Assembly: GCA_951406725.2 (NCBI GenBank) | Contig: OX597815.1 | Span: 42,036,001 to 42,100,000 of the forward strand | DNA length: 64,000 nucleotides | Origin: Octopus vulgaris | Taxonomy: Eukaryota | Direction of reading: 5' to 3' | In this document: positions 30,769-63,914 of the stretch, piece after piece | Layout of the letters: each line of letters begins with the position of its first letter | Numbering within the stretch: the stretch's first letter is position 1 | The notes under the pieces: model-generated | The model's input: only the letters and a program-made list of their open reading frames with translations | What the model was told of the DNA's origin: nothing | Database searches by the model: none | Made by a program: the position numbers and the translations under genes

Positions 30769-30919
30769 AATTCCGCCGAGGTCGACTTTGCCTTTCATCC
30801 TTTCGGGGTCGATTAAATAAGTACAGTTACGCACTGGGGTCGATATGATCGACTTAATCCGTTTGTCTGTCCTTGTTCGTCCTCTCTGTGTTTGGCCCCT
30901 TGTGGGTAGTAAAGAAATA
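30769..30919 (+). mobile_element. 5'-truncated Nin-type SINE with TSD
   Basis: TSD gtatgtataattc at 30761-30773 and 30920-30932; tail ggccccttgtgggtagtaaagaaata. Confidence 0.88.
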
Positions 30920-36539: not shown

Positions 36540-37570
36540 ATCTCCTCCAAAGTTTCCAGGGCTGCCTGAATTGATTTCGAGGCTCTGACTCTGCCAGTTT
36601 TGTTTCAAGACTCTCGTTACCTCGATGATGGTGATTTTATCCTCCAGTCCCATTAGTAGGGCTGGAAGTAACCATACCACGTCAATTTCTGGCGGGATTT
36701 CTTCTATTTTCACTTTGGCCGTTCTTCTGTTGGTAAAGTATAATCTCGTTAGTTTTTATTGGTTTTAATGAGTGGATTTTTGCCTTCTTCTCATCTTTAA
36801 AATAAAGCACTATTGTGGCATATTTCTTTCCACGTGTAACATAATCTATATCACTCCAAATAGGTTGAAGGCACCTTTCTGCCTGTTCGTTGGTGACTTT
36901 TTCGATCTTTTTATCCTTTATTATGAAGGATTTATAGATGATGATTCTTTACTGCGTCTTTTTCAGGATATCACTTGGGAGGGTGGCCTTTGCATCGGTT
37001 CCCTCCCTCGTGTACATGTTTTTGTATTTCATATATTCGCTCTCATTTATATTTAGAACCTCTCTTTTTTGGCCAGCCGCAGCTGCAACATTTTTTGTTC
37101 GTTGCTTAAATCTTCACCGGTTTTGCTTGTTCTTTTCAGAAGCTGATTTTTCACAGGTTTGCTTGTTCTTTTCAGAATCGGTTTTAGCCGATTTTTCACA
37201 AATTTGTTTGTCATTTTTCTTTTCAATGGTTTTTCCAGAGGACGAACCTCTAACAGATGCAGTGGATGCCATTTCTACTGAGATCATTTTTTCCGCTGAA
37301 GCCACTAAGTCTTCAGTATTCATTTCTTGGGTTTTTTCGAAACAGAAAATGTATTTTTTGTGTAAAATCACAAATGAAGCACTTTTCCCATCATTGCAGA
37401 GGGGAACAACAGTTCTTTTTTTTTTATCTGTTATAAGACAGACACACAAGTCAAAAACCAACAAAAACGATAATTTTTAACAATTAATTCAGCTAAACAC
37501 TACTTACTGCAACACTCCAATACAAAATAAGTAATCCAAAAAAGAGAAAAGGCAACTCGACTTCACCGAT
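36540..37570 (-). mobile_element. Decayed 5' part (ORF1) of a Tx1-like element related to element B
   Basis: Minus strand RTAKVKIEEIPPEIDVVWLLPALLMGLEDK versus element B RTSKIRIEDIPPEIEVKWLLPALLMGLERK; VAAAAG motif; 5' motif aactcgac near 37555. Confidence 0.8.
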
Positions 37571-40706: not shown

Positions 40707-41489
40707 CAAAGTTTTGTTAATCCTGTTCAGTTAATGAATTGTAATGTGTCTGTCTCTCTCCCTCCCTGTCTGCCTGTTTCTATATTTCTGCATGTGTGTG
40801 TTTGACTCTAGTACTAAAAAGTACTGTCACCAAAGCAGGTTCAGTGCTCGGTTATCTGTTCCAAATCACCAACGTCCAAGCAGCCGCACTAGAACGTCTC
40901 ATTCTGGACTTATGGCACAAACTTCTGGAGAGAGTCATTGATAACAACCTCCTCCAACACATTGAGTCTGAGGATAGTTATGATACTGTATTCTGTTGAT
41001 CAATCAGTCTTTATTTTGTGAATCAAAGGATGTTTTCGCTATTTCATCACTGTTTTTTGATGCGGTTACTTCACTCCAATTACTACCAATTTTTTCAGAG
41101 CTATCTGAAACTTTAATCGAAATTTATCCCCCCAAATTTTGTTTTATCCTATAGTCTTATAAATATGTCACCGTTATAAATCTATTGATTATGGTAGCGT
41201 TGAACATATAATAACAATTACCTAAATTTCCTTGAGCAGTCCTTTGAAGTCAAAAAGGAAGCATAGGAAATAACTTGTATATGATTGAAAGTTTTGGACA
41301 ATATAGCCTTTGCGAAGTGCAGTGGATCTGGTATTCAAAAACCAGCTGGTGAAAGCAAGGGTCTTGTTTAGCGAAGCGTATTCTATTTATCAAAACTAAG
41401 AGTTAGTAGCAGTTATTGGCTAACCCCAGCCTGCGAGACTTGCTGGGTGGCACCTCTAATGTGTTTCCTTCTAAGGAAAAATTACTTTT

Positions 41490-42354
41490 AATTTTCTAGT
41501 CATCGTTTGCCTTTTCTGCTATTTCTTTCTCCATTGTAAATTCATATAATGGGCATTCTGCCCTTATATGACCTCTTGCTCCACATAAGTAACAATTCGG
41601 CCTTCTTCCCTCTACAATTACTCCAATTGTTCTTCCATTTTCCACCTCTATATGAAAGGGAATTCGCTCGATATCTTCTATTGTGGCCATCAGCCACAAC
41701 TCGACACCGAATCCCTTCCAGTTCACGACATTGGTTTCTGTAATAGACCCCAGTTCTATTTCATCTTCAGTCGACCCTAGAATGGCTGTCACCAGCCATT
41801 CCATTTTTATCTCCGGCGGTACGTTTGGATCTTAACCCTTACGCCTCGTCTTCCTTTGTATGTAGGTAGCATTATAAAATTTTCCGCTCTAAGTACAGTG
41901 GAAGATAGCGAGGCCGCCTCTTCACTTGTGGCACACCTCACTTCTTCCCTCTGCATACATATGTCGCTTTGTCCATTATGTCACCAAGACACTTTTCTAT
42001 ATCTTCTATCGATATTTGCATTAGTTTCTTCGAGTTCCTATCCTGTGTCCTGTATATTATCGTTTTGTTGTTCCTGCTGGAGGGATCAGCTTGACGCTTT
42101 CACCCTCCCCTTTTACGTATTTCTCATATTCCTTTATTTCTTCCCTCTTAAACGTTACGTATCTTATCACAAGCGACGTGCCATTTTTCGTTGCGGTGAC
42201 CCTCGCATATGTCTCCATTACTGAGCGTCGACGTTCTATGAAAAGTAACGACAAGCAGCGGCAAGCGCCTCGCACGATTCGATCCTGTTTCGTCTCTCTC
42301 TACAATTTTTCACTCTTCTTCACACAAAAAATGTCTTAACACAGCATAACATGG
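41490..42354 (-). mobile_element. Tx1-like element A: decayed ORF1 and 5' end only
   Basis: ORFs 41496-41804 and 42057-42275 with VEGRRPNCYLCGARGHIRAEC zinc knuckle; no ORF2 or tail found. Confidence 0.8.
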
Positions 42355-42370
42355 TGTCAGTATGACTGCC

Positions 42371-45300
42371 TATTTCTTTATTACCCATTAACGGGCTACA
42401 CAGAACGTACAAAACAATCACGAATGATTAATACATGCTTCTGGGGTCTGTTTAAAAATTGAGTGATGAATAAAAGTTCGAATGATGAAACAATTACATA
42501 GACAAATTTACAAAATGTAGTGGGGTGGGTCTATGGACCCCACGCTCCCCGCCACGACACTTGACCTTGTGTTTTTTTCCGGCCTATCTCGCATTTGTGA
42601 GGGACCATTTATTCACCACATTTTTCCACCTTTCATTAAACACTTTCTTACTCAGACTCCTCCTCTCTAGTTTTATATGCCTTTTCAGGTGGAATTTAAA
42701 ATATTCCACCAGGCCAGAACCAGAGATGAAGTCGTCTGTTATCTTCCCTTTCATCCTTGTCTTCCATACTGCCTGTTTCGCAGTTGAAACCACAGAGAGA
42801 AAACAATTCTTACCTTCTTTCGTTAAGAAATCCGCTGGGCTGATTTTTACTATGGATTCGGCTGATAGCTGTACTCTTCCTTCACCTGACACCAGTTGTT
42901 TGGCAAAAACCCACATATCTGCCACCCCCGGACACTGCACGATCGCGTGCGAGACGGTTTCCCTGTCTCGCCCACATCTCGGACAGGTCGGGCTGACTTG
43001 GACACTGTGCCTTGCGAGTTTGTCCCGAACAGGTAAAGCTCCTCGGTAACACTGCCAAGCCAAAGACTTCTGAAAATTATCCAGGGTCTTCGGCCTGAAT
43101 GTACGTTGGAACAGACTGGCCAGCTGATTATCGTCGAAACCTAGGGTTTCCCCTAGCGTATCATCGTTACCGGCCTCTACGAACCCTCTATAAAACACTG
43201 CGGTAGAACCACTGCCGCAGGCATTGCTTGAGCGATGGAATAGTCGGAGTGCCATGCGACACTCCGTATACCACGAACCAAACTTCGATCTGCGATTATA
43301 CCAGTCTTCCCGTCCACCGAAACTGGTGAACCTGGGGAATATCTGTTTCGCCAGCGGAGACCACACCTGTTCACCATCTAGATGGAGCCATAGGTGCCTT
43401 AGCCTCAGCACATTTCTGCGCATCATTAGCCACAGCATCCCTAGTCCACCCTTTAACGGTTTTTGACAACAAATAGAGCATCTCACAAGTGGTTTCGAGC
43501 CCTTCCACAAGAAGTGAAAGAGCTGTCTCTCCAACTTGATCAACCACGAATCCGGGCAAGGCGGTAGGTGATCACCGATGCGATAAACACATTGGCTACC
43601 TCCGCCCTACCTTTCAAGGATAACCACTGCCAAGACCAAGTCTTGGCTACTGCAGCCACCTTGCTCGATACCTTGCTCTAGTTCTTCTCTATTTGGAGGT
43701 CTGGACCAAACCCAACCCTGAGCAACTTAATCGAGCCCTCCGTCCAACGTCCCACGACGCTGCCTGGAGGCATCGACTTGCCTCTCCAGGTGCTGAGTTG
43801 CAAGCCGACTGACTTTTCACGATTAACTTTTGCTCCTGTCACCGTCTCGTAAACCTCTATGGCCTTGCCTACTTTACGTAGGAGGTCCACTTCGGTCACG
43901 ATGATAGTGATGTCATCCGCGTACGCCGAAACCGACATTTCGTGTCCTGGTAGCCTCGGGATGCCGCTCAGTTTTCGCAGCAGCGGCTCAAGAGCCACTA
44001 CATACAAAAACAGGGAGAGCGGACATCCCTACCGAGTCGACGTTGTCGTACATTTCTATAATCCACCTGAGGAAGCCAAGACCCAGGCCGAACTGAGCCA
44101 GAACGGACACCAGGTAATGATGGTCGACCCTATCGAAAGCCTTTGACTGGTCTAAATGGACCACTGCCCCTCCCTTGCCGGGATCGTTATTCATTCCCTC
44201 TATCGTGTATCTAATAAGATGGAGATTATCCTGAATGGATCTGCCCGGTACGGCGCACGTTTGCGCCTTACCAATCAGTCCATTCGCGACACGCGCCAAT
44301 CTGTTCGATAACACTTTGGCCAAAATCTTCAGCTCTGCGTTAAGCAGAGTGATGGGCCTGAAATTATCAATGACATCCCCCTTGCTCCGGTCCTTCCTGG
44401 CTAGTGTCACCACTCCCAGGCGCACAGATCTGGGAATAAACCCATTCTGCTGCCAGTTTGCGTAGACGTTTGCCAGTTAGTCCCCAAACAAGTCCGGCAT
44501 ACTTTTATAAAGCTTGTAGGGCAGACCATCCAGTCCCGGCGCCTTACCCGCACCGCAGTCTGCCATGGCCTCTATTACCTCCTTAGGTGTGATTGGCTCC
44601 TCACTACACTTCGCGTCCTGCTCCGAGAGGCGCGGCAGCCCGTCGAGGAGGTCCTATCCCCCCCCCCAAAGAGCTGGGCGAAGTGCTCCTGAAAAGCTTG
44701 ACACATCTCCTCGGGCTCGTCTGTCAACTTACCCTGTTGGTTCGTCAGAGATCGAATTGTAGCATCGTTGCCACGTTGGGCTTCCACCACTCGGGCCCAT
44801 CCCGCGGCATTAATTCCTTCGCTCCCCATTGCATGTTGTCTAGCCCTGACAATGCAACCCATGTGTTTGGCTTCGAGGTGCTGGTTTAAAACCAGTCTCT
44901 TGGCCCTCACCTGAGCCACATTGCCAGTTCGCATTGCTTCCTCTAAGTCCTTAACTAGTGTACTTTCCTTCCTAGCCTCTCTAGCTACAAGATCTATACC
45001 TAATAGACTCATATTTTATGGCTCGCTTGAAGGCATACCACCATTTGTTGTCTGGATCATTAACCTAATCCTGTCACTGTACTCCTTAATTGCCAAAAGG
45101 GACGTATTAAGTTTCCAGTAACCAGGACCTCTATCTTATCTACGTCTAGCCTACAGGTGACCATCTTGTGGTCACTGTAGCTGACTATGTGGAGCTGTGG
45201 ACTCTAACTAGGTTTCTATCTACCTTCCTAATTAATATCCTGTCTATGTATGACCTTAATGATCCGTCGCTGCTTGACCATGTCCACAATGGAGCGTCCG

Positions 45301-47599
45301 GATGTTCCAGTCTATATGGATCTACCAGCTCAAAACGTCTTAGTAGATCCAGGAAGCAAGCATTTCCTTTCCTGTCTGTTCGCAATCCTTTACAGTCTAC
45401 CCGCACATCGCAGATTGTGTTGAAGTCTCCTAACATTACTAAAGGGTACGATGTACTCAGAAACTTCTCCAGATTCCGAAAATAATCACTTTCCCCTTAT
45501 TGCTGGGTGCGTAAACCGCAACCAGTCTGATTGTCTTAGGACTACTGAACGTCAAATCAACAACGACCAGCCTACCTTCTGGATCTGAAAAAATCAACTT
45601 TTTCCCAGAAACCCAGTTCTTTTTAACCAGGACCAACACCCCGCTTCCGCTGACCGCCGGGTTTGGAGAGATAATTCCCTCGTAGCCGCCGAACAACGGG
45701 AGCAGATCTCTTGGCCCCTTTAACCGGGTTTCTGTGGCAACAACATCTAGATCCCGTGACCTGATGTCATTTAGGAGGCGTCCTTGCTTCCAGCTCGACA
45801 TCAGGCCACACATTTATGCACCCTACACAAATACGAGACATTACTTACCTTTTCATTTTTTTTCTTCTCTGGTGGTCGTGGGAGGAAGTCCGCTTTAAAT
45901 AATGACTCGTGCAGGTCGAGTCGCGGACCATTAATGTCCCCCGGGTACCCCTCTCTTATTATATTAAAATTCATCATGTCAATATTGTAAACATCGACAT
46001 TTTTGGGGAGTACCCTATGTGTGTGGATTTTGTGTGCCGTTGGGATATTGTCTATTTGTTTTGTTAACCTGTCGTTTGCTTTGTTTATAGAAACGAATAC
46101 TGTCTCGTATTCTATTATTTTCTTTTTGGGGCTTTGTGGGGGTGATGGGGAGGAGAGGGAATTGCTCGGCACTGGGGAGTGGGGGTGGTTCGGGTTGGGC
46201 TGTGGGGGGGTCTTCTCTTTCTCTTTTTGTGGGGAACCATGGTTGGGTGGGGTAGATTTTTCCCCGTGTGTTTGATTTCTTTTTATATGTGCCTGGGTTG
46301 GGTGGGTTTGTGTCAACGTTTTTTCTCTTAGGAGTTTTCTTTTGCCTCACCGTTGTGTAGGCATTTTCGTCTTCCTTAGGTTTTTCTTCCTCCATCTCTT
46401 TACTCTTCTTCTCCACTTCTTCTGTCCTTTTTTCTTCCTCTTTCTTGCGGGTGGGGCATTCCATACGGATGTGTCCCTTTTCGCCACATTCGTAGCATCG
46501 AGGCGTTCACCCCTCCACCACCACCCGCAAGTTAATTTCCTCGCCGCATTGGATGCTCTCTGGGATCTCCTCCAGCGTTTCTGGGGCTGCCTGTATTATT
46601 ACATGTAGAGTCTGGCCTCTCCAATTTTCTTTTTTTATCTTTGTGATATTAACCACTCTTATTTTCCTCTCCAGCCCCATTAATAATGCTGGGAGCAGCC
46701 ACTTTACCTCAATTTCTGGTGGTATGTCCTCGATCCTTATTTTTGATGTTCTCCTCCCCAAATAAGAGGGTAGTAGAGTTATCTCGCTCGTTTTGATTGG
46801 GGTTAAGGAATGTTTTTTCGCCATTTCCTCGTCTCTAAAGTACACTTCTATAGTGGCGTACTTTTTCCCCCATGTCACATAATCTACGTCGTTCCATACC
46901 GGTTGAAGACACTTCTCCGCTTGTTCTTTTGACACCTTCTCGATCTTTTTTTCTTTTATGTAAGACTTATAAATTATAACTCTTTTGAGAGTTTCCTCTC
47001 TAATTACTTGTGGGAGGGTTGCTTTCACATTGTTCCCTTCCTTTGTGAACATTTTTTTATAATTCTCATAGTCTATTTCCTCCATCTTAATTTCTTCCAT
47101 TTTCTTTCTTGCAGCGGCTGCGAAATTGTATGTTGTGGTCTTATCATTTCCTTTGGAAGGCGAACCTTCAATCACTTCGGTTGCTTTCACAACTTCATCG
47201 GAAGGCGAACCTTCAGCAACTTTAGCTGTTTTTACAGCTTTTTCAGCAGGCGAACCTTCGACAATTTTCAATTTGGTTTCATCTATTTTTGCAATTTTTG
47301 ATGTAGGCGAACCTACTACATTTTCTTTTGAGGGTGAACCTCCGTCAGACATTTTTCCATCAGACATTTTTTCAGATGAAAAGATGTTTTTGTTCATTTT
47401 TTACAGAATTATGTTTTTTTTTTTTTTTGTGCTACAACGCACAGCACTTCCCTTCATTACGGAGGGGAATAAGTGTTTTCCTGGTTCAAAACCAGTTACA
47501 GTTCAAAGTAACACTTTTTTAACAAAACAATTTTTAACAAGACAATTTAAATACAATTTCAACAATATTTCACTCACATGTGTTCGAATAATAACGACT
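42371..47599 (-). mobile_element. Tx1-like element B, near full length, multiply frameshifted
   Basis: ORF1 47397 to ~45801 (CCHC knuckle across a frameshift); ORF2 from 45841 with APE endonuclease (GDFN), RT (SAYADD) and C-terminal CPRC..H...C; TSD tgtcagtatgactgcc at 42355-42370 and 47600-47615. Confidence 0.93.
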
Positions 47600-47615
47600 T
47601 GTCAGTATGACTGCC

Positions 47616-50600
47616 ACCAGGCCAGAGATCATGGTGTCTGTCATTACATTTTTCATTCTGGTCTTCCAAATAACCTCTTTAGCAACTGTTACTATCACGA
47701 CAAAGCAATGCTTACCTTCGTTTGTCAAGAAACCAGGCAAGTCAATTTTTAAAATTGACTCAGACGACAGCTGTGCTCATATTCCGTCTGACAACAGGTG
47801 TTCTGCATAGGCCCACACGTCCGAAATTTCCGGACACTGAACAATAGCGTGCAGGACTGTTTCCACATCCTGCTCGCATCTTGGACAGTTCGATGGTCCA
47901 CCGTGACCATGTCTTGTGAGCCTATCCCGAACGGGTAAGGCTCCTCTAACATTGCCAGGCCAAGGACTTCTGAAAGTTATTCAACGTCCTCGGTCCGAAT
48001 GTCCTTTGGGACAGGCTGTCTAACTGATTATTATCGGGACCCAAGGCCCTTCCCAGGGCATTGTCATTTCCGGCCTCTACCAACCTACTATAAAAAGCTG
48101 CGGTAATACCAAAGCCACCGGCATTGCCCGACTTGCGGAAGTAGAAGAGGGTTTTATGGCACTCTGAATACCACATACTCGACCTAAGTCTGCGACGATA
48201 CCAGGTTTCTCTACAATCAAAACTGGCAAAGCTGGGGAACATCTGCCTCGCGAGCGGGGACCACACCCGTTCACCATCCAGGTAGAGCCAAAGATGCCTC
48301 AACCTCAGCGCATGTTTGCGCATCAACAGCCAAGGCATCTCTAACCCACCCTTTAACGGCTTCTGACAGCAAATAGAACGTCTTACAAGAGGAGGGGAAC
48401 CCTTCCACAGAAAGCGAAAGATTTGCCTCTCCATCTTGCTCAACCACGAATCCGGACAAGGAACGACGGTTAGGCGGTAAGTGATGACCGATGCTATAAA
48501 CACATTGGCCACCTCCGCCCTCCCTTTCAAGGATAGCCACCGCCAAGACCAAGTCTCGACCGCGTAAGCCACCTTGCTCGCCACCTCAGACCAGTTCTTT
48601 TCTATCTGGAGATCTGGACCAAGCCAGATCCCTAGCAATTTAACCGGGCCCTCCGTCCAGCATCCCAATATGCTATTCGAAGGCATCGACTTGCCCCTCC
48701 AGGTGCCGAGTTGCAAGCCGACTGACTTTTCAACTCGTGCCCATCCGGCAGCCCTAATACCCTCGCTCCCCATTGCGCGGAGTCTAGCTCTGACGATACA
48801 ACCCATGTGTTTGGCTTCGAGGTGCTGGTTTAATTCCAGTCTCTTCAGCCTAACCTGGGCCCCATCGCCAGATCTCATGGCTTCCTCTAAGGCCTTAACT
48901 AGCCCCTTTTCTTCTCTACGCCCCCCACTAGCTACTAGTCCTATGCTATATGTAATGGACTCGTATTTAATGGCTCTCTTGAGGGCGTACCACCATTTTT
49001 TGTTAATAATGGAACCGGTTAACGCCCTCTGAATTAATAACTTAATCCAGCTTCTGAAATCCTTAATAGCCAAAAGGGACTTATTGAGTTTCCAGTAACC
49101 GAATCCCTTACTACATAACTTATCTAGGTGCAGTTTACCAGTGACCATCTTGTGATCACTGTAACTGACCGGGTGAAGCTGTGGACACTTAACTATGACT
49201 TTATCTATTTTTCTAATGAGAATCCTATCTATATAAGACTTGACAGACCCGTCGCTGTTTGACCACGTCCACTGTGGAGCGTTCGGGAATTCAAGTCTGT
49301 AGGGATCTACCAGCTGAAAGCGACTTAGTAGATCCCGGAAGCCACTGTTTGGTTTCCTATCGTTAGAGCCAACGCCATCGACATGCGCATTGACAATAGC
49401 GTTAAAGTCCCCTAGCATGTCTATGGATTTTGACGTGCCAAGAAACTTCTCTAGGTCTCGAAAATAATCAGTCTGATGTGAATTAGGTGCGTACACCGCC
49501 ACTAGCCTGATTTCCTTACCACAACTGAACTTCAGATCTAAGACGACCAGCCTACCTTCTGAGTCAGAAAGAATTAACTTTTTCTCTGAGACTCGATTTC
49601 TTTTGAGTAAGACCAATACCGCCGTCCAGGAGAAATAAATTTCTCGTAGCCATCCGGGAGCGGGAGTAGATCTCTTGGGCCTTCCACTCGAGTCTCAGTA
49701 GCAACAACAACATCTAAATCCTGCTACCTGGTATCATTTAAGAAACGCCCTTGTTTCCAGTTCGATATCAGGCCGCGCACATTTAAGCAACCTACATGAA
49801 CTACCATAATTCACCTACCTTGTTCATCTGGGTCCGGAGGACGTGGGGAACCCGCCTCTTCTACTTCTTGGGCCCGTGGAATCGGCAGGTTGGTGTTGTT
49901 ATTTTTTGCATCTCGCTTTGTGTCTTCTGCTCTCATTCTCGAGGGGCAGACATCTTTCCTGAAATCGTTTACTTATTGGTTGTACGTCTTCTGACCCATT
50001 TTGTAACTTCTCCATTCGCTTGCCGCTTCTTCTATCTCTATTTCTTCTATATGATGAGTTTCTATTCTCCTCATAATCTCTCTGTTAGATGACCTCATTG
50101 CTACGTACACTTGGTCGTCTGTAGCTTTCTCTGGCTTTTTCGCCTTTTTAATTTCTCTTGCTTTTTCACCTCTTATTTTCTCCAGGGAGGGGTTTTTATG
50201 CTTTCTTTTTTTGGTTTGAGTCCATCCCTCCCCTTCTTCTGGTATAGGTGTCGTTTCCAGTGGTACTTCAGGGTCAGTGTGTTCTTCAGTCCTTTTTTCT
50301 TCTTCTGCCGGCTTACAATTTTTCCTCAGGTGCCCCTTTTTTCCCCGCAAGCGAAGCACCTGGGCTGTCGGCCTTCAACCATAACTGGTAGACGGTTGTC
50401 ACCGATTTCGATAATCTCACTTATCTCTTCTAGCACGGCCGGTTCTTCTTGCAGAATTACTTTCACCTTTTGGTCGTGCCAGTATTTAGTCTCTTCCACC
50501 GTTGCATCTCTAATCTCTAGTCTCTCCTCTAGGCCCAAAGTAATTGCTGCGACTATCTGCTCCGGTTCGATTTTCCGGCGGATCATTCGCTATGGTTACT

Positions 50601-51471
50601 TTGGACATCCTTCTGCCCTTATAGATGGGCAGAAGCGTCACTATTTCCGTTTTCAGTGGGTTCATTGAGTGAAGCCTTGCTTCCTCCTCGTACTCGAACC
50701 ATACCTCTATTGTGCCGTACCTTTTCCCCCCTTGCAATGTATTTTACTTTGCTCCAAATAGGCTCGAGGCATGCCTCCACTTCTCTTTCTGCTGTAAATT
50801 CGATCTTCTTTTCTTTGCTTCTATATGTTTTATATATGATTGTTTTTCTTTCTACATTCTCTTTTACTTCTCTTGGTTGTACGATTTTTGTCTCGTATCC
50901 TTCTTTTTTCATATCCTTTTTGAGTTCCTCTAGGTTTGTGAGTTCGATTTTCTTTTCCTTGGTGCCTGCTGCTTCTGCGAAATTCAGCTGTTTTTTCGCT
51001 AGACTAGGCACATCTATGTTCTTTCGAACCTGCAGCCTTTTTTTCTCATTTTTGTTTTCGTTCTCCTCAGAGTCTGAAAGCAACTTCAATTCGCCGATTC
51101 TTTCCAACTCCTCTTCTGTTTTTTCTGGGCTAACCGCAGTTTGGCTAGCCGTTTTTCCTGGTCTCGCCATGATTTTGCTTGCCGTTTTTCCTGAGCTTTG
51201 GCTTGCTGTTTTCGCCATAATTTGGTTTGGCATTTTTCCTGGGCTTACCATAATTCAGCTTGCCGTTTTCTCTGGTCTCGCCGCAATTAGGTTTGCCGTC
51301 CTTCCCGGGCTGGCCATAATTTGGCCTACCCTCACAGGCAGTTCTTTCACAGAAATAACAAGAGTTTTTAACAATTTTTAACAATATCCCAAAATAAAGG
51401 TAATCCAACAAAGGTAATCCAATAATGGCACGGTAAACAATACAAATAATACTTCCAACTCGACAGTCACG
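47616..51471 (-). mobile_element. Tx1-like element C: RT domain deleted in frame, 3' end missing
   Basis: ORF 47946-49616 joins AAGWARVE directly to KSVGLQLGTW; frameshifted ORF1 ~51317-49800 with 10-aa repeats and zinc knuckle. Confidence 0.92.
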
Positions 51472-51762
51472 TTTAAGAAACACACTATTTCTTTATTACC
51501 CACAAAGGGCCAACGAAGAGGGGGACAACACATGATTTGGGGTCATGAAACAGATGAAATTTACATATAAATGAACTTTAAAATATTTTTACATGAAATA
51601 ACAAAAATCGAAGAAATCGAATGATACACAATTTCTTTTTTATTTTTTTATTTTTTTAAACAGCACGACATAAAAAGAACACATGAAGTGGGAACACCAG
51701 GATTGCCGACCCCACGAGCCCTGTTTTTCCCACCGAAACTCGGCAGCCAACTTACAGCGTGT

Positions 51763-54700
51763 TCACGTGGCCCCTTTCACTCGCAGCAATCGTGCCACAC
51801 GTTTCCATATTTTGTCAAACTCACACGCAGACAGACACCTTTTCTCTAACTCCACCTTTCTTTTTAGGTGGAACCCGAAAAAGATCACCAAGGCGGAGCC
51901 AGAGATCATGGTGCCTGTCTTTACCGCTTTCATTCTAGTCTTCCATATACACTCTTTCGCTACTGCTACTGTACTGAGAAAGCAATGCTTACCTTCACTT
52001 GTCAAAAAGCTAGGCGAGTCAATTTTTATAATTGTCTCAGCCGATAGCTGTACTCTTCTTCCGTCTGACAACAGGTGTTCCGCATATACCCACACATCCG
52101 AAACTTCCGGACACTGAACAATAGCGTGCGAGACTGTTTCCAGATCCCGCTCGCATCTTGGTCAGTTCAATGGTCCACTCCAACCATACTTTGTGAGTTT
52201 ATTCCGAACGGGTAAAGCTCCTCTGAAACATTGCCAGGTCAAAGACCTCTGGAAGTTATCCAATGTCTTCGGCCCGAACGTCCTTCGGAACAGGCTGTCT
52301 AACTGATTTCGATCGAGGCCCAAGGTCCTTCCTAAGGCATCGTCATTTCCGGCCTCTACCAACCTGCTATAGAAAGCTGCGGTGGTACCAAAGCCGCCGG
52401 CATTGCCCGACTTGCGGAAGTGGCAGAGTGCCTTATGGCACTCCGAATACCACATGCTCGATCTAAGTCTACGACGATACCAGGTTTCTCTGCCACCGAA
52501 ACTGACAAAGCTGGGGAACATCTGCCTCGCAAGCGGGGACCACACCCGTTCACCATCCAGGTAGAGCCAAAGATGCCTTAACCTCAGCGCATCTCTGCGC
52601 ATCATCAGCCAATGCATCCCTAAGCCACCCTTTAACGGTTTCTGACAGCAAATAGAACGTCTTACAAGAGGAGTGCTTCCCTTCCACAAAAAGTGGAAGA
52701 TCCGCCTCTCCAACTTGCTTAACCATGAATCCGGACAAGGGACGACGGTCAGGCGGTAGGTGATGACCGATGCTAAAAACACATTGGCCACCTCCGCCCT
52801 CCCTTTCAAGGATAGCCACCGTCCGGACCAAGTCCTGACTGCGTGAGCCACCTTGCCCGTCACCTCAGACCAGTTCTTTTCTATCTGGAGATCTGGACCA
52901 AACCAGATCCCTAGCAGCTTAACCGGGCCCTCCGTCCAGCATCCCACGATGCTATTCGAAGGCATCGACTTGCCCCTCCAGGTGCCGAGTTGCAAGCCGA
53001 CCGATTTTTCACGGTTAATCTTTGCTCCTGTCGCCGTCTTGTAAGCCTTGATGGCATCTCCCACATTACGTAGGAGTTCCACCTCGGTCTCGATGATGGT
53101 GATGTCGTCCGCATACGATGTTACAGATCCTCCACCTCCTGGATTCATCGGGATGGCGCTCAGCTTTCGCAGCAATGGCTCGAGAGCCATCACATACAAA
53201 ATCGAGGAGAGTGGACACCCTTGACGGACAGACTGTCTGATGCGGAACGGCTTCGAAAGGAAGCCATTCACCCGAACGATCGAGTCGATGTTATCGTACA
53301 ATTGTATGATCCACCTGAGGAAGCCAACACCCAGACCGAACTGCGCCAGCACGGACACCAGGTACCGATGGTTCACCCTATCAAACGCTTTACTCTGGTC
53401 TAAATGGACCAGTGCCCCACCTTTGCCAGAGTCATTCCCAAACCTCTCTATTGTGTAGCGTACTAGGTGAAGATTGTCCTGGTTGGTTCTTCCAGGGACC
53501 GCACAAGTTTGTGCCTCCCAGATCAGACCACCCGCGACACGCGTCAACCTTTTCGCTAGCACCTTGGCCAAAATCTTCATCTGTGTTTAGCAGAGTGATG
53601 GGCCGAAAGTTGTCTATGTTGTCCCCCTTGCTCTGGTCCTTTCTGATCAGCGTCACCACTCCCCGATGTACAGATCTGGGAATGAACCCATTCTGTCGCC
53701 AGTTCGCGAAGACGCCGGCCAGCACGTTCCCGAACAAGTCTGGCATTCTTTTATATAGCTCGTAAGGTAAACCATCAATCCCCGGCGCCTTACCTTCACC
53801 GCAGTCGACCAAGACCTCAGCTATCTCCTCAGGCTAGATCGACGCTTCACAGCTCTCCGCGTCTTGCCCCGAGAGGCGCGGCAACCCGGCGAGGATGTCC
53901 GTTAGGTCCACCCTCTCCTCCGGCCCGCCGTCGCCCCCAAAGAGCCGAGCGAAATGCTCCTGAAACGTCCGACACATCTCCTCTGGTTCGGTGATCACAT
54001 CGCCTTGCCCGCTCGTCACAGACTTAATTGTGGAATCGTTTCCACGTTGAGCCTCCACAACTCGTGCCCATCCGGCAGCCTTAATACCCTCGCACCCCAT
54101 TGCGCGAATTCTAGCTCTGACGATACAACCCATATGTTTGGCTTCGAGGTGCTGGTTCAACTCCAGTCTCTTCAGCCTAACCTGGGCTCCATCGCCAGCT
54201 CTCATGGCTTCCTCTAAGGCCTTAACTAGCCCCATCTCTTTCCTACGCCCACTAGTTGCCAGACCTATACTGTATCTAACGGACTCGTACTTGATGGCTC
54301 TTTTGAGGGCGTACCACCATTTGTTATTAATAATGAAACCGGTTAACGCCCTCTTCACTAATAACTCGATCCGGTTTCTGTACTCCTCAATAGCCAGAAG
54401 GGACTTATTGAGTTTCCAGTAGCCGAATCCCTTACTACCTAACTTATTTAGGTTCAGTTCACCAGTGACGATCTTGTGATCGCTGTAACTGACCATGTGA
54501 AACTGTGGACACTTAACTAATCCTTTATCTATTTTTCTAATAAAAATTCTGTCTATGTAGGACCTGACAGACCCGTCGCCACTTGACCACGTCCACTGTG
54601 GAGCGTTCGGGAATTCAAGTCTGTAGGGATCTACCAGCTGAAAGCGACTCAGTAGATCCCGGAAGCCAGGGTTTGGTTTTCTATCTTTTGAGCCAACGCC

Positions 54701-55147
54701 ATCGACGCGCGCATCGACTATGGCATTAAAGTCCCCTAGCATGACTATGGATTTTGACGTGCCAAGAAACTTCTCCAGGTCCCGATAAAAATCAGTCTGA
54801 CTCGAATTAGGTGCGTATACTGCTACCAGCCTGATTTCTTTACCACAACTGAACGTCAGATCTAAGACGACCAGCCTACCTTCTGAATCAGAAAAAATTA
54901 ACTTTTTCTCTGAGACACTATCTTTTTTATGCAGGACCAACACCCCACTCCCGCCCACATGCCGTCCAGGAGAAATAAATCTCTCGTAATCGTCCATGAG
55001 CGGGAGTAGATCTCTTGGCTCTTCGATTCGTGTCTCAGTAGCTACAATTACATTTAAATTCTGCGACCTGATATCGTTTAGTAAACGACCTTGTTTCCAG
55101 TTCGCTACCAGGCCGCGCACATTTATACAACCAACGTAAACAGCCAT
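51763..55147 (-). pseudogene. Element D ORF2 (APE endonuclease, RT, zf-RVT), frameshifted
   Basis: Segments 53834-55147 (INVRG, GDFN, YIDRI, SDH), 53432-53812 (KAPGIDG, FRPITLLN), 52162-53580 (LDQSKAFDRV, QGCPLS, SYADD) and 51763-52095; some frameshifts may be assembly errors. Confidence 0.9.
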
Positions 55148-56499
55148 AGTTTGCTTACCTTATTTCCTCTGGGTCCGGCCGACGGGGGGGAATCCGTCTC
55201 TTCTGCCTCCGGGGACCGTGGAATCGGCGAGTTGCTGTTCTTCTTTTCTACATCCTTCAGGGCATCCCCCTTGCTCATTCTGGATGGGCCTACATCTTTT
55301 CTGAAATCATTTGCTAACGTGTTGAACCCTCTCTGTCCCATCACGTAGCATCTCCAATCTCCACATCTCTCTTCCATCTCCACCTCCTCGATGTGTTGTG
55401 TCTCCACTCTACGCATCACTTCTCTGTTTGCGGTGTTCATCGCAACATATACCTTGTTTTCCTTCTCCGGCTTCTTCGCTTTCTTCACCTCTCTCTTCTC
55501 TTTGCTTATGGTTTTCTCCGGGGAGGGGTTATTGTGTTTTCGTTTTGTAGCAGCAACCTGTGACCACCCCTCCCCTACTTCTGTTGCAGGTGTTGTTTCT
55601 GTTGCCGCCACTTGAGAACTTGGCTTTGTGGGTTCGCCCTTCTCCTTCTCCGCCGGCTTGCAGTCTTTCTTGATGTGGCCCTTCTTGCCACAGGTGAAAC
55701 ACCTGGGCTTCCGGCCCTCCACCATTACTGCCATCCGGCTCTCCCCGATCTCGATAACCTCGCCTATCTCTTCCAAGACGTCCGGCTCGGCCTGTATAAT
55801 AATCCTTACCTTCTGTCCCTGCCACTTTTTGGCATCTTCCACAGTGGCATCGCGAATTTCTATTTTTTCCTCCAGCCCTGCAGTGACTCCAGCCACTATT
55901 AGTTCGGGCTCAACCTCTGGCGGTATGTTAGCAATTGTTATCCTCGAGATGCGCCTTCCTCTATAAATAGGGAGAAGGGTTATTGTCTCTGTTTTCAGGG
56001 GTTTCATGGACTGCTCCCTTGCTTCTTCCTCTGTTCTGAATCTGGTTTCCACCGTACCATATCTTTTACCCCTGGTTAAAAATATGATTTTTTCCCAGAT
56101 GGGTTGTATGCAAGCCTCCACTTCCTTTTCCGAAGAAAAGTCTATCTTCCTTTCCTTATTTCTGTATGTTTTGTACACTATCGTCTTTCTCTCTATCTCT
56201 TCGCGAGATTCTTGTGTCTGATGTAGTTTAATTTCATACCCGCTTCTGGATACTGTTTTTTTCGCTGCTTCTAGTTTGGTCAGATCTATTTTTCTTCCTT
56301 TTGGGCTAGCCGCTTCGGCGAAGTTTAACGTTTTCCTTGCCACGCTTGGCACATCTATATCCCTTTGTACCGCATTTCTGGTTCCCCTACTTTCCTCTTC
56401 GTCCGAGGAAAAGCCGGGTATAGCTGTTATTCTTTCTAGGCTGGACATCTCTGGACTCTGGGTTTGGTCCTCCGTTCTGTCCGCCTTCGGGCTGGCCAT
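55123..56499 (-). CDS. Element D ORF1 (gag-like nucleic-acid-binding protein, RRM-like region plus single CCHC knuckle)
   Basis: Uninterrupted ORF from MASPKA; CFTCGKKGHIKKDC; overlaps ORF2 start by 25 nt. Confidence 0.88.
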   Translation of the reverse strand: MASPKADRTEDQTQSPEMSSLERITAIPGFSSDEEESRGTRNAVQRDIDVPSVARKTLNFAEAASPKGRKIDLTKLEAAKKTVSRSGYEIKLHQTQESREEIERKTIVYKTYRNKERKIDFSSEKEVEACIQPIWEKIIFLTRGKRYGTVETRFRTEEEAREQSMKPLKTETITLLPIYRGRRISRITIANIPPEVEPELIVAGVTAGLEEKIEIRDATVEDAKKWQGQKVRIIIQAEPDVLEEIGEVIEIGESRMAVMVEGRKPRCFTCGKKGHIKKDCKPAEKEKGEPTKPSSQVAATETTPATEVGEGWSQVAATKRKHNNPSPEKTISKEKREVKKAKKPEKENKVYVAMNTANREVMRRVETQHIEEVEMEERCGDWRCYVMGQRGFNTLANDFRKDVGPSRMSKGDALKDVEKKNSNSPIPRSPEAEETDSPPSAGPRGNKVSKLWLFTLVV

Positions 56500-56699
56500 T
56501 ATTGGCCTACCCCTCGTCAGCGGCTTCACTAATATTAGTCAAATAAAATTCGACTAACAAATTCAAAAACAACTTACTTTTTCTTTTTGTTTTTTTTTTT
56601 CTTTTTTCACAATTAACAGCTGGTAATAGAACACACTGACAAAATTTTCACGAGCCGAAAAAAACACGACTGCGACAAGGAATCATTTGAGAAACACAC

Positions 56700-58347
56700 T
56701 ATTTCTTTATTACCCACCAGGGGCGACGAAGAGGGGACATAACAAAACATTGGGGACATAGAACAATATGATTAAAATTATGAGCAAATGAATTATAAAA
56801 TGAAAAAATGATAATATGAAAGCAATGCTAACGGCCCCATCCGCCAGCATCACTTACCTGTCCTTTATCACCCATTTCCCATTACAATTCCAAACTTTTT
56901 TATCACACTCTTCGTTTCTCTTTCATACCTCTCTATCATTTCATCCTTCATTGGCGCTGTCATCCATTTTATACGCACTTCGTTACACTTGTTCACCAAT
57001 GAGTCCATAAGTTCATCTTCAAACACCGCGTAACTACCGTCTTCATGCTCTTGCCATACGTCATTATGAAAAATCCTTTTTGAGTTCTCGGTGTCCCCCC
57101 TCCTCACAACACATAAAAAGTAGGTCTTGGGCCTTTGTTTGTTCTGTGTGTCTGTTTTTGTTTTTCTTGTAGGCGGGGAGCGGGTGGAATCGCTGTTTGC
57201 AGGGGAAGGATGGGACTCCAAGGGTGTGGGTGGTGTTGGGGTGGGTTGGGGCTTCGCACTGTTTTCTTTTTACCTTTTTCTCTTTTTCTCTTTTTTTTCC
57301 ACTCTTGCTGGATATTCTCCTCTTCAGTTGCTTCCCTTTCTGTTAGGTTCTCCTTTTCTTTGGTATCTTCCTTCATTTGGGGCTCCGTGACGACTTCCTT
57401 TTCCTTTGGTGGGGGAGGGCAGTAGGCTCTTATGTGACACCTCAGGCCACACTTATAGCACCTGGGCGCCCTACCCTCCACCCACACTCTCATAATAATG
57501 TTCCCAGTTCTTATAGTATCCGTCAGCCTTTCTATTATTTCCGCCTCCGTCTGTATGTTCATGTCTAATGTGGCACCTCTCACGCCTTCGTATTTCATAG
57601 TGGCGTGGAGGATGTCCACTTTATCTTCGTTTCCCTTGATCACCGCAGCCGTTATATATTCACCCTCTAGGTGTGGAGGTATTCCCTCCACCCTAATTCT
57701 TGTGGTCCTTCTATTTAAATACGAGGGTAGCAAGTATATTTTTTCCGTTCTCACCACCTTGGCTGCTATATTCCTGGCAACGTTCTCGCTTCTATATTGT
57801 ACTGTTACCGTTCCGTACTCCAATTCTCTTGTCAGGTAAACTATTTCCTCTCCAGTCTGTTTCAAAGCCTCTTCAATGGCTTCCATATTAATTATTTCCA
57901 TTTTTTTTCCTCCATTCATATATACTCTATATTTGATGGTTCTACGATTGAACCACTCGCCGCGCCCTGCTGGAGGCGACAGCTCGACCTCTCCGTTCTC
58001 CTCCTCCTTCATAAACTCCTGGAAGCCCGGCAACTTAGCCAGGTCCACCTCTTTTTCTATCGACTTCCTCGTTATTCCTGCGTAGGTACTTTCCATCTTT
58101 TCCACCGTTCTCTCCAACTCCTCCTCAGATGTCGATATTTCCGACGAACTTTCAGATAAATTCCTTCCGGCCATCTCATCCGTATGGGAGAGGCGGCTCA
58201 TAATCGCCTCAGACCGAAAAACGGCCGCCCGAACAGAAACAGTGCGACGCGCAGAACCAGCGCGACGCGAAACCGCACCAACCGAAGTTCAAAACTCCAC
58301 AACAACAACAATACTTTTTGTTCTTTTTTGCCGAATTCTACGAGCCG
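56700..58347 (-). mobile_element. Element E: ORF1-only non-autonomous Tx1-like element
   Basis: ORF 57104-58201 plus frameshifted C-terminus to 56868 with CYKCGLRCHIRAYC; ~170-nt 3' UTR ending in the shared tail; shared 5' motif acgagccgaaaaaacacgac; no ORF2 sequence. Confidence 0.9.
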
Positions 58348-58360
58348 AAAAAACACGACC

Positions 58361-61300
58361 TATTTCTTTATTACCCACTAGGGGCCACATAGATGGGACA
58401 ATACAATCTGATGATGGGGTCAGACACACGAATGGGTTTTACAAAAAAGCGAATTTTAAAAATTTACAGAAATTTACAAAAATAGCAAGAAATCGAATGT
58501 TGGAACAGACCGGAAGACATTACGGGTGGAGTGGGTGCGGGTTTAGCTCTGACCCCACGAGCCCCGCCTCCCCACTGATACTTTTGGTTTCGTTTGGTTT
58601 TACATTTATGTTGTATCATTCACTCGCAACTTTCGTGCTACATCTTTCCATCGTTCTTCATACACTCTCTTAGTCAGGCATATTCTCTCCAGCCCTATCT
58701 TCCTTTTCAGGTGAAAGATGAAATAATTCATCAAACCAGGGCCGGAGATGAACTTGCCTGACTGTAGACCTTTCATTCTCGTCTTCCATATCACCTCTTT
58801 CGCAATTGCTACTACAACGAGAAAACGAAACTTACCTTCATTCGCGAGGAAATCCGGTGGGTCAATTTTTGTAATCGACTCAGTCGACAGCTGTACTCTT
58901 CGTGTACTTGACAACAGCTGTTCGGCATAAACCCACACCTCAGACACGTCCGGACAATGAACAATAGCGTGCGGGACGGTTTCCCTATCCCGCCCGCATC
59001 TTGGACATATCGGACTGTCTCGGCCACCGTGCCTTGCGAGTTTATCCCGAACAGGTAGAGCTCCTCTGTAGCATTGCCATGCCAGAGACTTCTGGAAGTT
59101 GTCCAGTGTCTTCGGCTTGAACGTACGTCGGAACAGACTGGCCAGCTGATTATCGTCGAGACATAGGGTTTCCCCCAAGGTATCTTCACATTCCGCCTCT
59201 ACCAACCCTCTATAGAAGAATGTGGTGGAACCCCCACCGCAGGCGTTACCCGAGCGACGGAATAGCAGGAGAGCCTTGCGACACTCCGTGTACCAAGTAC
59301 CAAGTTTCGATCTACGATTCAGCCAGGTTTCCCATCCACCGAAACTAGTGAACTTGGGAAACATCAGTTTTGCTAGCGGAGACCACACCCGTTCACCATC
59401 CAGATAGAGCCACAGATGTCTTAACCTCAGCGCATGTCTGCGCATCATCAGCCAAGGCATCCCTAGCCCACCCTTTAACGGTTGTTGACAGCAAGTAGAG
59501 CGTTTCACAAGTGGTTTCCCGCCCTTCCACAAGAAGTAGAAGAGCTGTCTTTCCAACTTGATCAACCACGAATCAGGGCAAGGAACGACGGAAAGGCGGT
59601 AGGTGATAACCGATGCGATAAACACATTAGCCACCTCCGCCCTCCCTTTCAGGGATAGCCACCGCCAAGACCAGGTCTTGGCTATTGCAGCCACCTTGCT
59701 CGTTACCTCGCCCCAATTCTTCTCTATTTGGAGGTCTGGACCGAACTAGACCCCTAGCAATTTAATCGGACCCTCCGTCCAACGTCCCACGACGCTGTCA
59801 GGAGGCATCGACTTGCCTCTCCAGGTGCCGAGTTGCAAGCCGACTGACTTTTCGCGATTAACTTTTGCTCCTGTCACCGTCTCGTAAACCTCTATGGCCT
59901 TGCCTACTTTACATAGGTGGTCCATTTCGGTTACGATGATGGTGATGTCATCCGCGTACGCTGACACCGATTTTCCATTAACTGGCTGTCTCGGGATGCC
60001 GCTCAGTTTTCGCAGTAGTGGCTCAAGAGCCATCACGTACAAAAGCAGGGAGAGCGGACACCCTTGACGAACCGAGCGTTTGATTTTGAACGGCTTCGAC
60101 AAGAAGCCGTTCACCCGAACTACCGAGTCGATGTTATCATAAATTTGGATAATTCACCTGAGGAAGCCAAGGCTCAGCCCGAACTGTGCCAGAGCAGATA
60201 CCAGGTAACGATGGTCGACCCTATCAAATGCTTTAGATTGGTCTAAATGGACCAGAGCCCCACCCTTGCCAGAATCATTATTAAACCCCTCTATAGTGTA
60301 CTGCATTAGATGGAGATTATCCTGAATGGTTCTGCCCGGAACGGCACATGTCTGTGCCTCCCCGATCAGACCATCCGCGACACGCGCCAATCTTTTCGAT
60401 AACACTTTGGCCAAAATCTTCAACTCTGTGTTTAGCAGAGTGATGGGCCTGAAATTATCAATGCACTCCCCCTTGCTCGGGTCCTTTCTGACGAGTGTCA
60501 CTACTCCCCGGCGCACAGATCTGGGTATAAGCCCGTTCTGCCACCAGTTCGCATAGACCTCCGCCAGTAGGTGCCCGAACAAGTCTGGCATACTCTTATA
60601 TAACTCATAGGGTAGACCATTCAAACCCGGCGCCTTGCCCGCGCCGCAGTCCGCCATTGCCTCAACCACCTCCTCAGGCGTGATTGGCCCTTCACAGCCC
60701 TCCGCATCTCGCCCCGTTAAGCGCGGCAGCCCGTCGAGTAGGTCCGTATAGGCTCTCCTCCTATCCAGTCCGCCGCACTCACCGAAAAGCTGAGCGAAGT
60801 GCTCCTGAAAGGCCTCACACATCTCCTCGGGTTCGTTTATCAACTCACCTTGTTGGTTCGTCAAAGATCGAATCGTGGCATCGTTACCACGCTTGGCTTC
60901 CACCACTCGGGCCCATCTCACGGCGTTGATTCCTTCACATCCCATATGGCGGATCCTAGCCCTGACAATGCAGCCCATGTGTTTGGCCTCGAGGTGCTGG
61001 TTTAACACCAGTCTCTTGGACGCCACCTGAGCCGCAGAGCCAGTTTTCAAGGCTTCCTCTAATTCCTTAACTAGAGTAGTTTCCCTCCTAGCCTCTCTAG
61101 CCACTACTCCTATGCTATATCTAATTGACTCGAACTTGATGGCTCGTTTGAGGGCGTACCACCATTTGTTATTAATGATGGTACCAGATAGTGCCCTCTG
61201 AATTATATCCCTAATCCGGTCTTTGTACTCCTTAATCGCCAAAAGGGACGTATTAAGTTTCCAGTAACCGGATCCTCTATTTTTAACCTTATCTATGTCA

Positions 61301-63551
61301 AGCTTACAGGTGACCATTTTATGATCACTGTAGCTGATCGGGTAAAACTGTGGACACTTAGCTATTTTTCTGTCTACTTTTCTAATTAGTATTCTATCTA
61401 AATATGACCTGGAAGATCCGTCGCTGTTTGACCATGTCCACAATGGAGCGTTCGGAAATTCCAGCCTATAAGGATCTGCTAGCTCAAAGCGGCTTAGCAG
61501 TTCCATGAAGCCACTGTTACCTTTTCTATCTGAACGCGAGCCAACACAATCTACATCCGCTTTGCAAATTGTGTTAAAGTCTCCTAGCACAACTAATGAA
61601 TGCGAAGTACTAAGAAAGTTTTCTAGTTCACGAAAATAATCACTTTGCCCTGTATGGTTGGGTGCGTAAATTGCAACCAGTCTGATAACTTTACCGTTAC
61701 TGAACGTCAAATCCATGACGACCAGCCTACCTTTTGGATCTGCAAAAATTAACTTTTTCTCAGAAACCCGGTTTCTTTTTATTAGGACCAACACCCCACT
61801 TCCGCCAGTAGGACTGCCAGGAGAGAAAAAACTCTCGTAGCCGTCAAACAGCGGGAGTAGACCTCTTGGCCCCTCTAACCGGGTTTCTGTAGCAACAATA
61901 ACATCTAAATTACGCGACCTGATATCATGCAGGAAGCGACCTTGCTTCCAGCCTGCTCCCAGGCCGCGCACATTCAAACAAGCAACATAAATGTAATCCA
62001 TTACTTACCTTTATATCAGTGGTTCGGTTTTCTCTTTCTCTTCTTTGTTTAACTCTTTTTCAGGGCCTCGTGGGGGAGTCTGACGTAGGCCCTCGAATAT
62101 ATGTGGAGATGTCACATCCATTCTAAGTGGGCCTACGTCATGGAAGAATTCGGATTTTATCCGCCCGTAATCCTTCCGGCCTATTCTGTAAACTACATAG
62201 TCGTTCTTTTTCCCTATTCTCTCCACTTTGGCCATAGCTGCCAATACGTTCCCAAGTCTGTTATTTGATGCCTTAACGGCCATATACGAGTTCATCGACT
62301 CTCTTTTCTTTTTTAAGTTCACTCTGGGAGGGGTGGTTTCCGTTTTTCTTTTTTTTTTCTGGTGATTTTTGCCCACCCCTCCCCATTTTTCTTTTCCTCG
62401 CTCTTATTTTCCTCCGCCGCTAGTTCTGCTGCCTTTTTCACCTCCACACCTTCAGTCGTCCCTTCTGGGCCGCCCGGCGCTGCTTCTGGTGACACTTTAT
62501 CTTCTTTTTCACCTGGCTGAGGTGCTTCCTGCGGTTTGGGTTTGGGTTGGCATTCCGCCCTTACATGACCCTTCTTGCCGCAGCCGAAGCACCTCGGCTT
62601 TCTGCCCTCCACGAAAACTGTTATTCTCTCTTCCTCACTTATTTTTAAAGTTTCTGGAATTTCCTCCAGTGTTTGAACTTCCGCCTGAATGGCTATTACT
62701 ATTTTCTGTCCTTTCCAAAATTCCTCTTCCTCCACTGTGGCCTGGAGGATGTTTATTTTTTCCTCCAGGCCTACCATCACTGCTGCCACTAGACATTCGG
62801 CATCTGCCTCTGGGGGAATGTTGTTCATCGTAATTCTCGATGTTCTTTTCCCTCTATACAAGGGGAGGAGAACAATGTTCTCCGCTTTAATCGGCTCCAT
62901 AGATAGTTTTTTCGCTATCTCCTCTGTAGTGAAACGCACCTCCACTGTGCCGTATCTCTTTCCTCTGTTAATGTAAGTTATTTTGTCCATTAATGGTTTA
63001 AGACAGTTTTTTCTTCAATTTTTTGGATCATTTTTGTCGTCGTGTTGAATGTCTTATAAATTCTTTTTTTTTCTATTTCATCGTGTTTTTGGACGTTTGT
63101 GACCACTGTCACTTCCGTGCCCTCTTTTTTTACACAGTCCGCATATTTTTCCAAATCTTCTACATTTATTTTTTAAATCTTTTTACCGGTCACTTCAGAG
63201 AATTTTTTCGCTGGTGCTGGGTTTTCCTTTTTCTTTGGTGACGTCGCCTCTTTTTTCTTTGGCGACACCGCCTCTTTTTTCCTTGGCGACATCGCCGGAT
63301 ACTCCTCTTCACTCGTCACGGGAGAATCAGAGAAGGGGGACTCCATCTTGAACAGTTGGCTTCACAAGCCCTTGGTAACTTCAAGATAATTGATATTTTT
63401 CCCTCACGGAGGGGGGAACACCAACGCGAAGTCCTCGCGCGAAGGCTGACTTCGACTGTTAGACAGCAATATACAAAACAGGTAGACAAACAGTAGAGAA
63501 TAACAGATAATAATACGATAGCAAAAATATATCAACTTACAATAAACGCAA
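58361..63551 (-). mobile_element. Tx1-like element F, full length, frameshifted
   Basis: ORF1 from ATG at 63346 to ~62011 (CFGCGKKGHVRAEC); ORF2 62001-58606 in three segments with EN, RT (SAYADD) and CPRC knuckle; flanking repeat aaaaaacacgacc at 58348-58360 and 63552-63564. Confidence 0.95.
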
Positions 63552-63684
63552 AAAAAACACGACCGTTCGATTCACTTCAACATTTAAATTTAATTTGTCA
63601 AAATATTTTCGTCGCTTTGAGACCGCGACCTGTTCACTGACAAAACTTCGTGCTGCATGGTTAGATTATATGAAGTATTCTAAT

Positions 63685-63914
63685 GCGGCGAGCTGGCAGA
63701 AACGTTAACACGCTGGGCGAAATGCTTAGCGGTATTTCGTCTGCCGTTACGTTCTGGGTTCAAATTCCGCCAAGGTCGACTTTGTCTTTCATCCTTTCGG
63801 GGTCGATAAATTAAGTACCAGTTACGCACTGGGGTCGATGTTATCGACTTTATCCCTTTGTCTGTCCTTGTTTGTCCCCTCTATGTTCAGCCCCTTGTGG
63901 GTAGTAAAGAAATA
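63685..63914 (+). mobile_element. Full-length Nin-type SINE with 16-bp TSD
   Basis: TSD tatatgaagtat(t/c)cta at 63667-63682 and 63915-63930; tail gccccttgtgggtagtaaagaaata. Confidence 0.9.

Follow-up and report, generated by a model that had tools for sequence, protein, structure and literature searches.

A one-orientation stack of LINEs and ORF1-only partners in a Penelope-like end repeat of Octopus vulgaris, probably built by successive insertions at one site

Our analysis indicates that a 64,000-nucleotide stretch of the Octopus vulgaris genome, hereafter the window, contains a stack of retroelements which share one 3' tail, sit in the end repeat of a Penelope-like element and were probably built up by successive target-primed insertions at a single site, the newest copies likely being those at the upstream end. 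The anatomy of the stack, its host repeats (repeat W here; Helitrons X, Y and Z elsewhere), independent hits on one and the same base of X, target-site duplications (TSDs) and a single orientation are direct observations. The array is one of many such chains in the genome, most of the examined ones being located within Helitron repeats, and it is placed at C2:42.04-42.10 Mb of a 215.6 Mb contig, far from both contig ends. A telomeric array was rejected on this interior position and on the presence of host repeat on both sides of the arrays.

The stack spans 41490-63564 on the minus strand and comprises six divergent units in the 5'-to-3' order F, E, D, C, B, A (Table 1), of which B, C, D and F are L1/Tx1-type LINEs and A and E are ORF1-only partners, C and A being broken. 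A 16-nucleotide tail occurs on the minus strand exactly four times (at 42371, 51486, 56700 and 58361), and the 5' region of the next unit follows each occurrence. Re-analysis thus bore out what an earlier note on this DNA had claimed about the positions and divergence of the six units, the four tail-to-5'-end junctions, the 16-bp repeat of B (47600-47615 and 42355-42370) and the 14-bp repeat of D with its one mismatch (56686-56699 and 51472-51485), each repeat occurring only twice in the window. Its description of six Tx1-like retrotransposons needs correcting for A and E, which contain ORF1 only and are not full LINEs, and its caution over the 13-bp repeat flanking F was well placed, this repeat being the same as the 5' start common to E and F copies elsewhere. 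Identity between units amounts to 72-88% in ORF2 regions and 29-59% in ORF1 pieces, which rules out a tandem duplication; collapsed repeat and tandem duplication were both rejected on this divergence and on contigs bridging the junctions. Among the pieces listed, the C/B junction was bridged by contigs of three public runs (X1, X2 and X4) and the D/C junction by one contig (run X4), E/D, F/E, W/F and B/A not being bridged. No RNA run appeared among the holders listed in this search of public sequencing runs. Rfam and tRNA scans of the window gave no match, and an RNA gene as target was therefore set aside.

Table 1. Features of the array and its surroundings (window positions)
Feature	Positions	Strand	Description
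F	58361..63564	-	Full-length LINE; ORF1 broken; ORF2 with APE endonuclease, RT and zf-RVT; two stops, no frameshift
E	56700..58360	-	ORF1-only element with family tail; member of a recurring ~1.7-kb family
W-derived 14-bp target copy, E tail / D 5' end	56686..56699	-	
D	51486..56685	-	Full-length LINE; open 471-codon ORF1 with zinc knuckle; ORF2 with two stops and one frameshift
W-derived 14-bp target copy, D tail / C 5' end	51472..51485	-	
C	47616..51471	-	LINE; ~1.05 kb of ORF2 deleted at 48732/48733; 3' end absent
Upstream copy of B's 16-bp TSD	47600..47615	-	
B	42371..47599	-	Full-length, decayed LINE; ORF2 with five stops and about six frame changes
A	41490..42370	-	ORF1-only element, 5' half (3' half absent); its initial 16 bases serve as B's downstream TSD copy
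Separate B-like 5'/ORF1 remnant	36630..37570	-	4 kb past the array; 68% to B ORF1; 5' motif visible
W left half (~207-bp pLTR, Penelope-like element)	63565..63658	-	Flank upstream of F; likely array seed
Predicted minimal hammerhead-like motif in W	63594..63645	-	Stem I, core, stem II, GAAA, palindromic helix III

The ORF2 pieces of B, C, D and F encode an APE endonuclease, a reverse transcriptase (RT) and a zinc motif (Pfam Exo_endo_phos, RVT_1 and zf-RVT), and an open F-type ORF2 taken from another locus found its best PDB match in human L1 ORF2 (E 1e-64), R2 following with E 2e-26. With an N-terminal APE endonuclease, an RT and a C-terminal zinc motif, the four units have the layout of L1-group LINEs, to which they appear to belong. 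From their domain layout they are presumably Tx1 elements; protein homologue searches returned no named Tx1 reference, the homologues being unnamed or labelled 'hypothetical'. Tx1-clade features that were seen are a zf-CCHC zinc knuckle in the ORF1 pieces of D, A and B and a preference for multicopy repeats with TSDs, strong in the F variant and A and weak in B and D. Decay is least in F, next in D, and then in C and B, and the nearest fetched relatives are 99.3% identical for F, 96% for D and 89% for E. Ahead of C-/D-type 5' regions at L353, L354, L355, L357 and L197 we also noted TATA-like and CCAAT-like motifs, which suggest an upstream promoter in some copies of these types.

Three families, E, A and G, consist of units of 1.7-1.9 kb that carry the family tail and lack ORF2, the relatives of A elsewhere measuring ~1.9 kb. 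Median dN/dS of E-type ORF1 was 0.12 in the 15 of 28 pairs with dS > 0.2 among eight open ORFs, a set selected for open frames in which many pairs are saturated, and the window's E compared with other E-type ORFs gave about 0.12-0.18. By structure and by this signature of ORF1 constraint, E, A and G appear to be ORF1-only partners of the HAL1 or HeT-A kind, and they may borrow ORF2 through the common tail. HAL1 (half-L1) elements are ORF1-only derivatives of an L1-group LINE and are not known to form arrays or to have common target sites. Apart from these families, an abundant SINE ends in a near-identical tail (window 37991-38362, 63665-63914, 19078-19320, 29011-29152 and 30769-30919) and is probably mobilised by the array LINEs; some D- and F-type insertions lie inside it (L002, L147, L148).

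The host of the array was missed in the earlier note: the array begins inside the terminal repeat W, and the 14-bp sequence previously read as D's TSD is, from its sequence, W. The 95 bases upstream of F belong to this dispersed ~207-bp repeat (1033 first-look candidates), the right half of which was searched for in the window and not found. A LINE at the array's W site was absent from 29 of 29 other sampled W copies, and in 27 of these 29 empty copies D's 14-mer is present just beyond the window's breakpoint. Two D-type elements, on C27 and C19, possess the window's left flank, the same duplicated target and the right half of W, at the same W base. The exact pattern of tail plus W target has four matches in 2.8 Gb, two in the window and those on C27 and C19, against none for the reversed control; W is accordingly a minor target, with three loci by this exact pattern. 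Longer W copies show the end of a GIY-YIG ORF upstream of W (PF01541, E 1.5e-5, above the cut-off) and 15 of 30 W copies have an adjacent inverted partial copy, and by this ORF and these inverted truncated neighbours W is the terminal repeat (pLTR) of a Penelope-like element. The putative hammerhead-like motif of W was recognised by eye and by its fold, in which stems I and II form (z -1.56), and its core recurs in 30 of 30 W copies, these having been picked by that same stretch. Rfam gave no match for the motif, and at a relaxed threshold returned only microsatellite-driven miRNA matches for six W loci. The core has a G3-C8 swap, the minimal hammerhead core of pLTRs having U3-A8, not G3-C8, in the available portion of the published description (PMC4209133).

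Genome-wide, the main landing pads are non-autonomous Helitrons. X begins with 5' TC, ends with a 3' hairpin and CTAG and is inserted between A and T, while Y and Z, known by their 3' ends, have a hairpin and CTAG before T, and one Y copy contains a helicase remnant (Pif1 2B domain, E 3e-15); on these structural features the three appear to be Helitrons, Y and Z by their 3' ends. Among the first 30 by position of the 915 exact X copies, 5 are filled, all at one and the same base, and the other 25 are empty. Filled and empty copies are interleaved in the X tree, with 12 changes of which at least 3 are forced, the bootstrap being not fully settled, and the F copies in X are 5'-truncated at differing points (L308, L309, L319), which indicates that the X site was hit repeatedly; both X subfamilies have been hit, with matching local tags. 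A single composite of Helitron and F amplified once was rejected as the whole explanation on this interleaving and these varied truncations. Arrays fetched from C32, C4 and C38 run from the left part of X through several ORF1-only units and one to three F copies to the right part of X.

A decayed Tx1-type ORF1 fragment (~40% to B ORF1) spans the insertion site in X itself (e.g. L203:1250-1900, oriented), and the X pad may be derived from an earlier captured element. At L334-L343 an X-related Helitron holds a fixed ~155-bp A-type 5'-end piece with one recurrent junction at many loci, a pattern of Helitron capture and spread. Both observations, together with near-identical runs of G on C4 and of E on C5, would suit an origin of the arrays mainly by copying, whether through multi-unit read-through transcripts, transposition of filled Helitrons, or unequal recombination and duplication. 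The same holds for C10 (43.60-43.62 Mb) and C15 (65.72-65.75 Mb), where arrays share paralogous blocks of 99% identity, flank included, and differ in array contents, offering a natural test of growth and recombination. Arrays are therefore also copied as blocks and loci are not independent. As the main source of the arrays we nonetheless judge copying improbable, since the window's units are so divergent in ORF2 and have separate TSDs, the truncations in X vary and the tags match the local X subfamily.

How the chains relate to their neighbours was assessed from genome searches, each of which scored 40 of its 123-1243 candidates and gave the best 30; these are not random samples and include some loci from one array. 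The tail set numbers 114, being 120 minus four self-hits and two tail-less hits. Only TSDs of at least 12 bp at the element edge were used, because the automatic TSD finder yields false short matches; they measure 12-24 bp. The earlier note expected tails to be followed by family 5' ends in the same orientation, and this held in part: downstream of the 114 sampled tails lay a relative's 5' end on the same strand in 21 cases and on the opposite strand in none, most B, D and E tails having no relative there (a tail was followed by one in 8/29, 6/28 and 3/29 sampled cases, respectively). The remaining tails faced Helitron X (19), Y (9), Z (5), W (2) or other sequence (58), and 19 of 28 sampled F-type tails rested directly on X with no relative downstream. 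D-type copies lie mostly at unrelated sites with ordinary TSDs. This scatter, with the 58 of 114 tails that have no recognised target, implies that strong specificity exists only in some subfamilies.

Looking from the other side, 42 of 58 sampled intact E and F 5' ends are preceded by a relative's tail: for F, a tail in 22/29, X in 5 and Y in 2; for E, a tail in 20/29, X in 6 and other sequence in 3. ORF1 similarity downstream of tails was sense in 38 and antisense in none of the 120 flanks, and opposite-strand neighbours are present upstream of D copies at L264 and L268. The idea of a multi-family group stacking in one orientation away from telomeres thus gained support from the sense-only flanks and the interior position. 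Insertion at or just before relatives' 5' ends was supported as a frequent arrangement for E and F and not as the primary targeting rule, for the arrays are seeded in X, Y, Z and W and the commonest spacers are host repeat. In 26 X-array loci, 64 tails abut the right flank of X (19), an X-derived tag (27), the 5' motif directly (17) or other sequence (1), the typical spacer between a tail and the next 5' end being a 12-17-base tag of host target.

Recognition of a common 5' motif or promoter of relatives, with host repeats supplying the first element by chance, would account well for those 17 direct contacts, for the motif flanking the window's F, for a D at an E 5' end with an 11-13-bp motif repeat (L272) and for B's TSD, which covers the first bases of A and matches no known host repeat. 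That it is the general rule seems improbable to us, given the F-type tails on X with no relative downstream, the X-derived tags after 27 of the 64 tails and D's TSD, which is W sequence.

The tags bear on the direction of growth. In pairs within X where A lies upstream of F, the tag of A follows that of F at 15 of 15 discriminating sites, i.e. sites where the F tag differs from X, and follows X at none, one of the 15 reflecting a change in X. The set consists of nine hand-picked pairs, all in X and none from the window, two of them sharing one array; a duplicate on C10 was set aside, as was one pair that lacks an upstream tag. Permutation of tag inheritance gave p 2e-4 (7 pairs) and 0.006 on positions 6-15 only. 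These data fit insertion of A after F, on F's upstream side, and since A's tag follows F's they point to growth at the upstream end. The opposite polarity, in which the nick falls just 3' of an existing tail and the newest copy lies downstream, would be in keeping with the tail at the start of every junction and with successive insertions that coincide, to one or two bases, with the preceding tail. It is very unlikely and was already disfavoured: tag inheritance runs against it by 15 to 0, the upstream F is the least decayed unit, and the SINE with the near-identical tail is absent at the W site and, by body similarity, was never the upstream neighbour in 58 5' flanks.

Other properties of the tags bear on their origin. 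The two target copies flanking a solo F differ from each other at L303, L306, L310 and L316, and in solo elements, whose upstream tag often departs from the downstream target, the first bases of that tag follow the local X subfamily. Y-derived tags were found in an array flanked on the right by sequence other than Y, and an identical extended tag occurs in the window's D and in the D on C27. We infer that tags are partly carried on the RNA.

In the stepwise-insertion reading that we prefer, the endonuclease would favour short motifs in host repeats and each insertion would leave a target copy ahead of the new 5' end; transcripts would often start within this copy, so that elements come to carry drifting target tags, and the next landing site would be formed by the tag plus the left flank. 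Copies of the E, G and D types might also cut the 5' motif itself, a sequence similar to the W target. Chains would then grow, likely because each new copy rebuilds the landing site at its own front end. Successive W-site insertions, likely in the order C, D, E, F, would fit the layout seen here (W-left, F, E, W tag, D, W tag, C), E or F having been joined to W through a short microhomology and F having cut at the 5' motif of E. F is the most upstream unit and the least decayed, in line with upstream growth; the nearest relative of E being less similar than that of D runs counter to a simple age order, perhaps through sampling. A and B may be older and downstream, or may have inserted into C's ORF2; in the latter case a single deletion would account for all that is missing (the 3' half of A, the 3' end of C and the right half of W), whereas two deletions are needed if A and B came first.

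A bolder version, possible although on balance doubtful, is that LINE RNA carries at its 5' end a heritable copy of its last landing site, every insertion planting a new pad and being able to splice by microhomology onto other repeats, and several autonomous and ORF1-only families sharing pads to give one-directional chains. If true, the octopus would hold an equivalent of HeT-A/TART that needs no telomere, with the choice of target passed on in part by the RNA and not set by the endonuclease alone.

The ingredients all have precedents: Tx1 families that target other transposons, tandem copies with a TSD in common, partners with ORF1 only and LINEs that nest in themselves. In the available part of the crocodilian account (Kojima 2015, PMC4494074), Tx1-Mar, Tx1-9_AMi and SINEU target Mariner-N4, Harbinger and LTR elements, tandem Tx1/SINEU insertions sandwich one TSD, and hitchhiking was tested with 5'-truncated copies. 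The octopus system is alike in that its Tx1 families, like their non-autonomous partners, favour a site within other transposons; unlike the crocodilian one, its targets are Helitrons and a Penelope end repeat, its partners retain a coding ORF1, and its arrays mix several ORF2 families and reach at least 20 kb. Growth direction and drifting tags do not appear in that part of the crocodilian account (PMC4494074). Xenopus Tx1L, an APE-endonuclease LINE targeting the non-autonomous DNA transposon Tx1D, is one family with one target as cited in the portions consulted of PMC4494074 and PMC6719617, whereas the octopus has several families and several pads, with relaxed choice for B and D. Drosophila HeT-A/TART/TAHRE form head-to-tail arrays of ORF1-only and ORF1+ORF2 families (excerpts of PMC6719617 and PMC6581046); they are of the jockey clade and lie at chromosome ends, while the octopus array is interior, has TSDs and lacks a poly(A) tail. 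Cnl1 of Cryptococcus and Zepp of Coccomyxa are LINEs that insert into copies of themselves in a single orientation and build nested clusters; in the accessible sections of PMC9942834 and PMC3446292 this nesting involves one family, lies within the element and is either subtelomeric or found once per chromosome. The octopus units instead abut end to end, with a foreign repeat as seed. A published annotation of octopus repeats includes 13 recent L1-Tx1 families, with nesting unmentioned in its available portion (PMC13282606). Among the titles and beginnings of abstracts listed from the open literature, nothing was found on Tx1 targeting Helitrons or Penelope ends, and the phrase 'inserted into Helitron' did not occur in the papers listed for it.

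The combination provides a natural record of insertion order and of the making of the upstream target copy, the least understood step of LINE integration. Close ORF2 relatives that are tight (F variant) or loose (B, D) in their choice, several of them open in the genome, allow a direct test of specificity. For repeat annotation, such chains are prone to collapse or mislabelling.

Some minor observations were made in and around the window. E-type 5' regions at L184:1143-2650 show many A-to-G differences from other copies, resembling RNA editing; no excess of A-to-G change was seen in the window's units, where counts are small. On the plus strand, a 471-codon frame at 24252-25667 with a weak RT match (RVT_1, E 2e-4) represents a different retroelement, and a 289-codon open frame at 32608-33477 has no Pfam match. 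A distant ORF2 relative, 66% to F, lies on the same strand as the array at L397:4974-7944 (reverse strand), ~2-5 kb upstream of the window end. A ~410-bp repeat at 40300-40711 and 26377-27239, present in three copies, two of them inverted, and found near other loci as well, is probably a MITE-like element.
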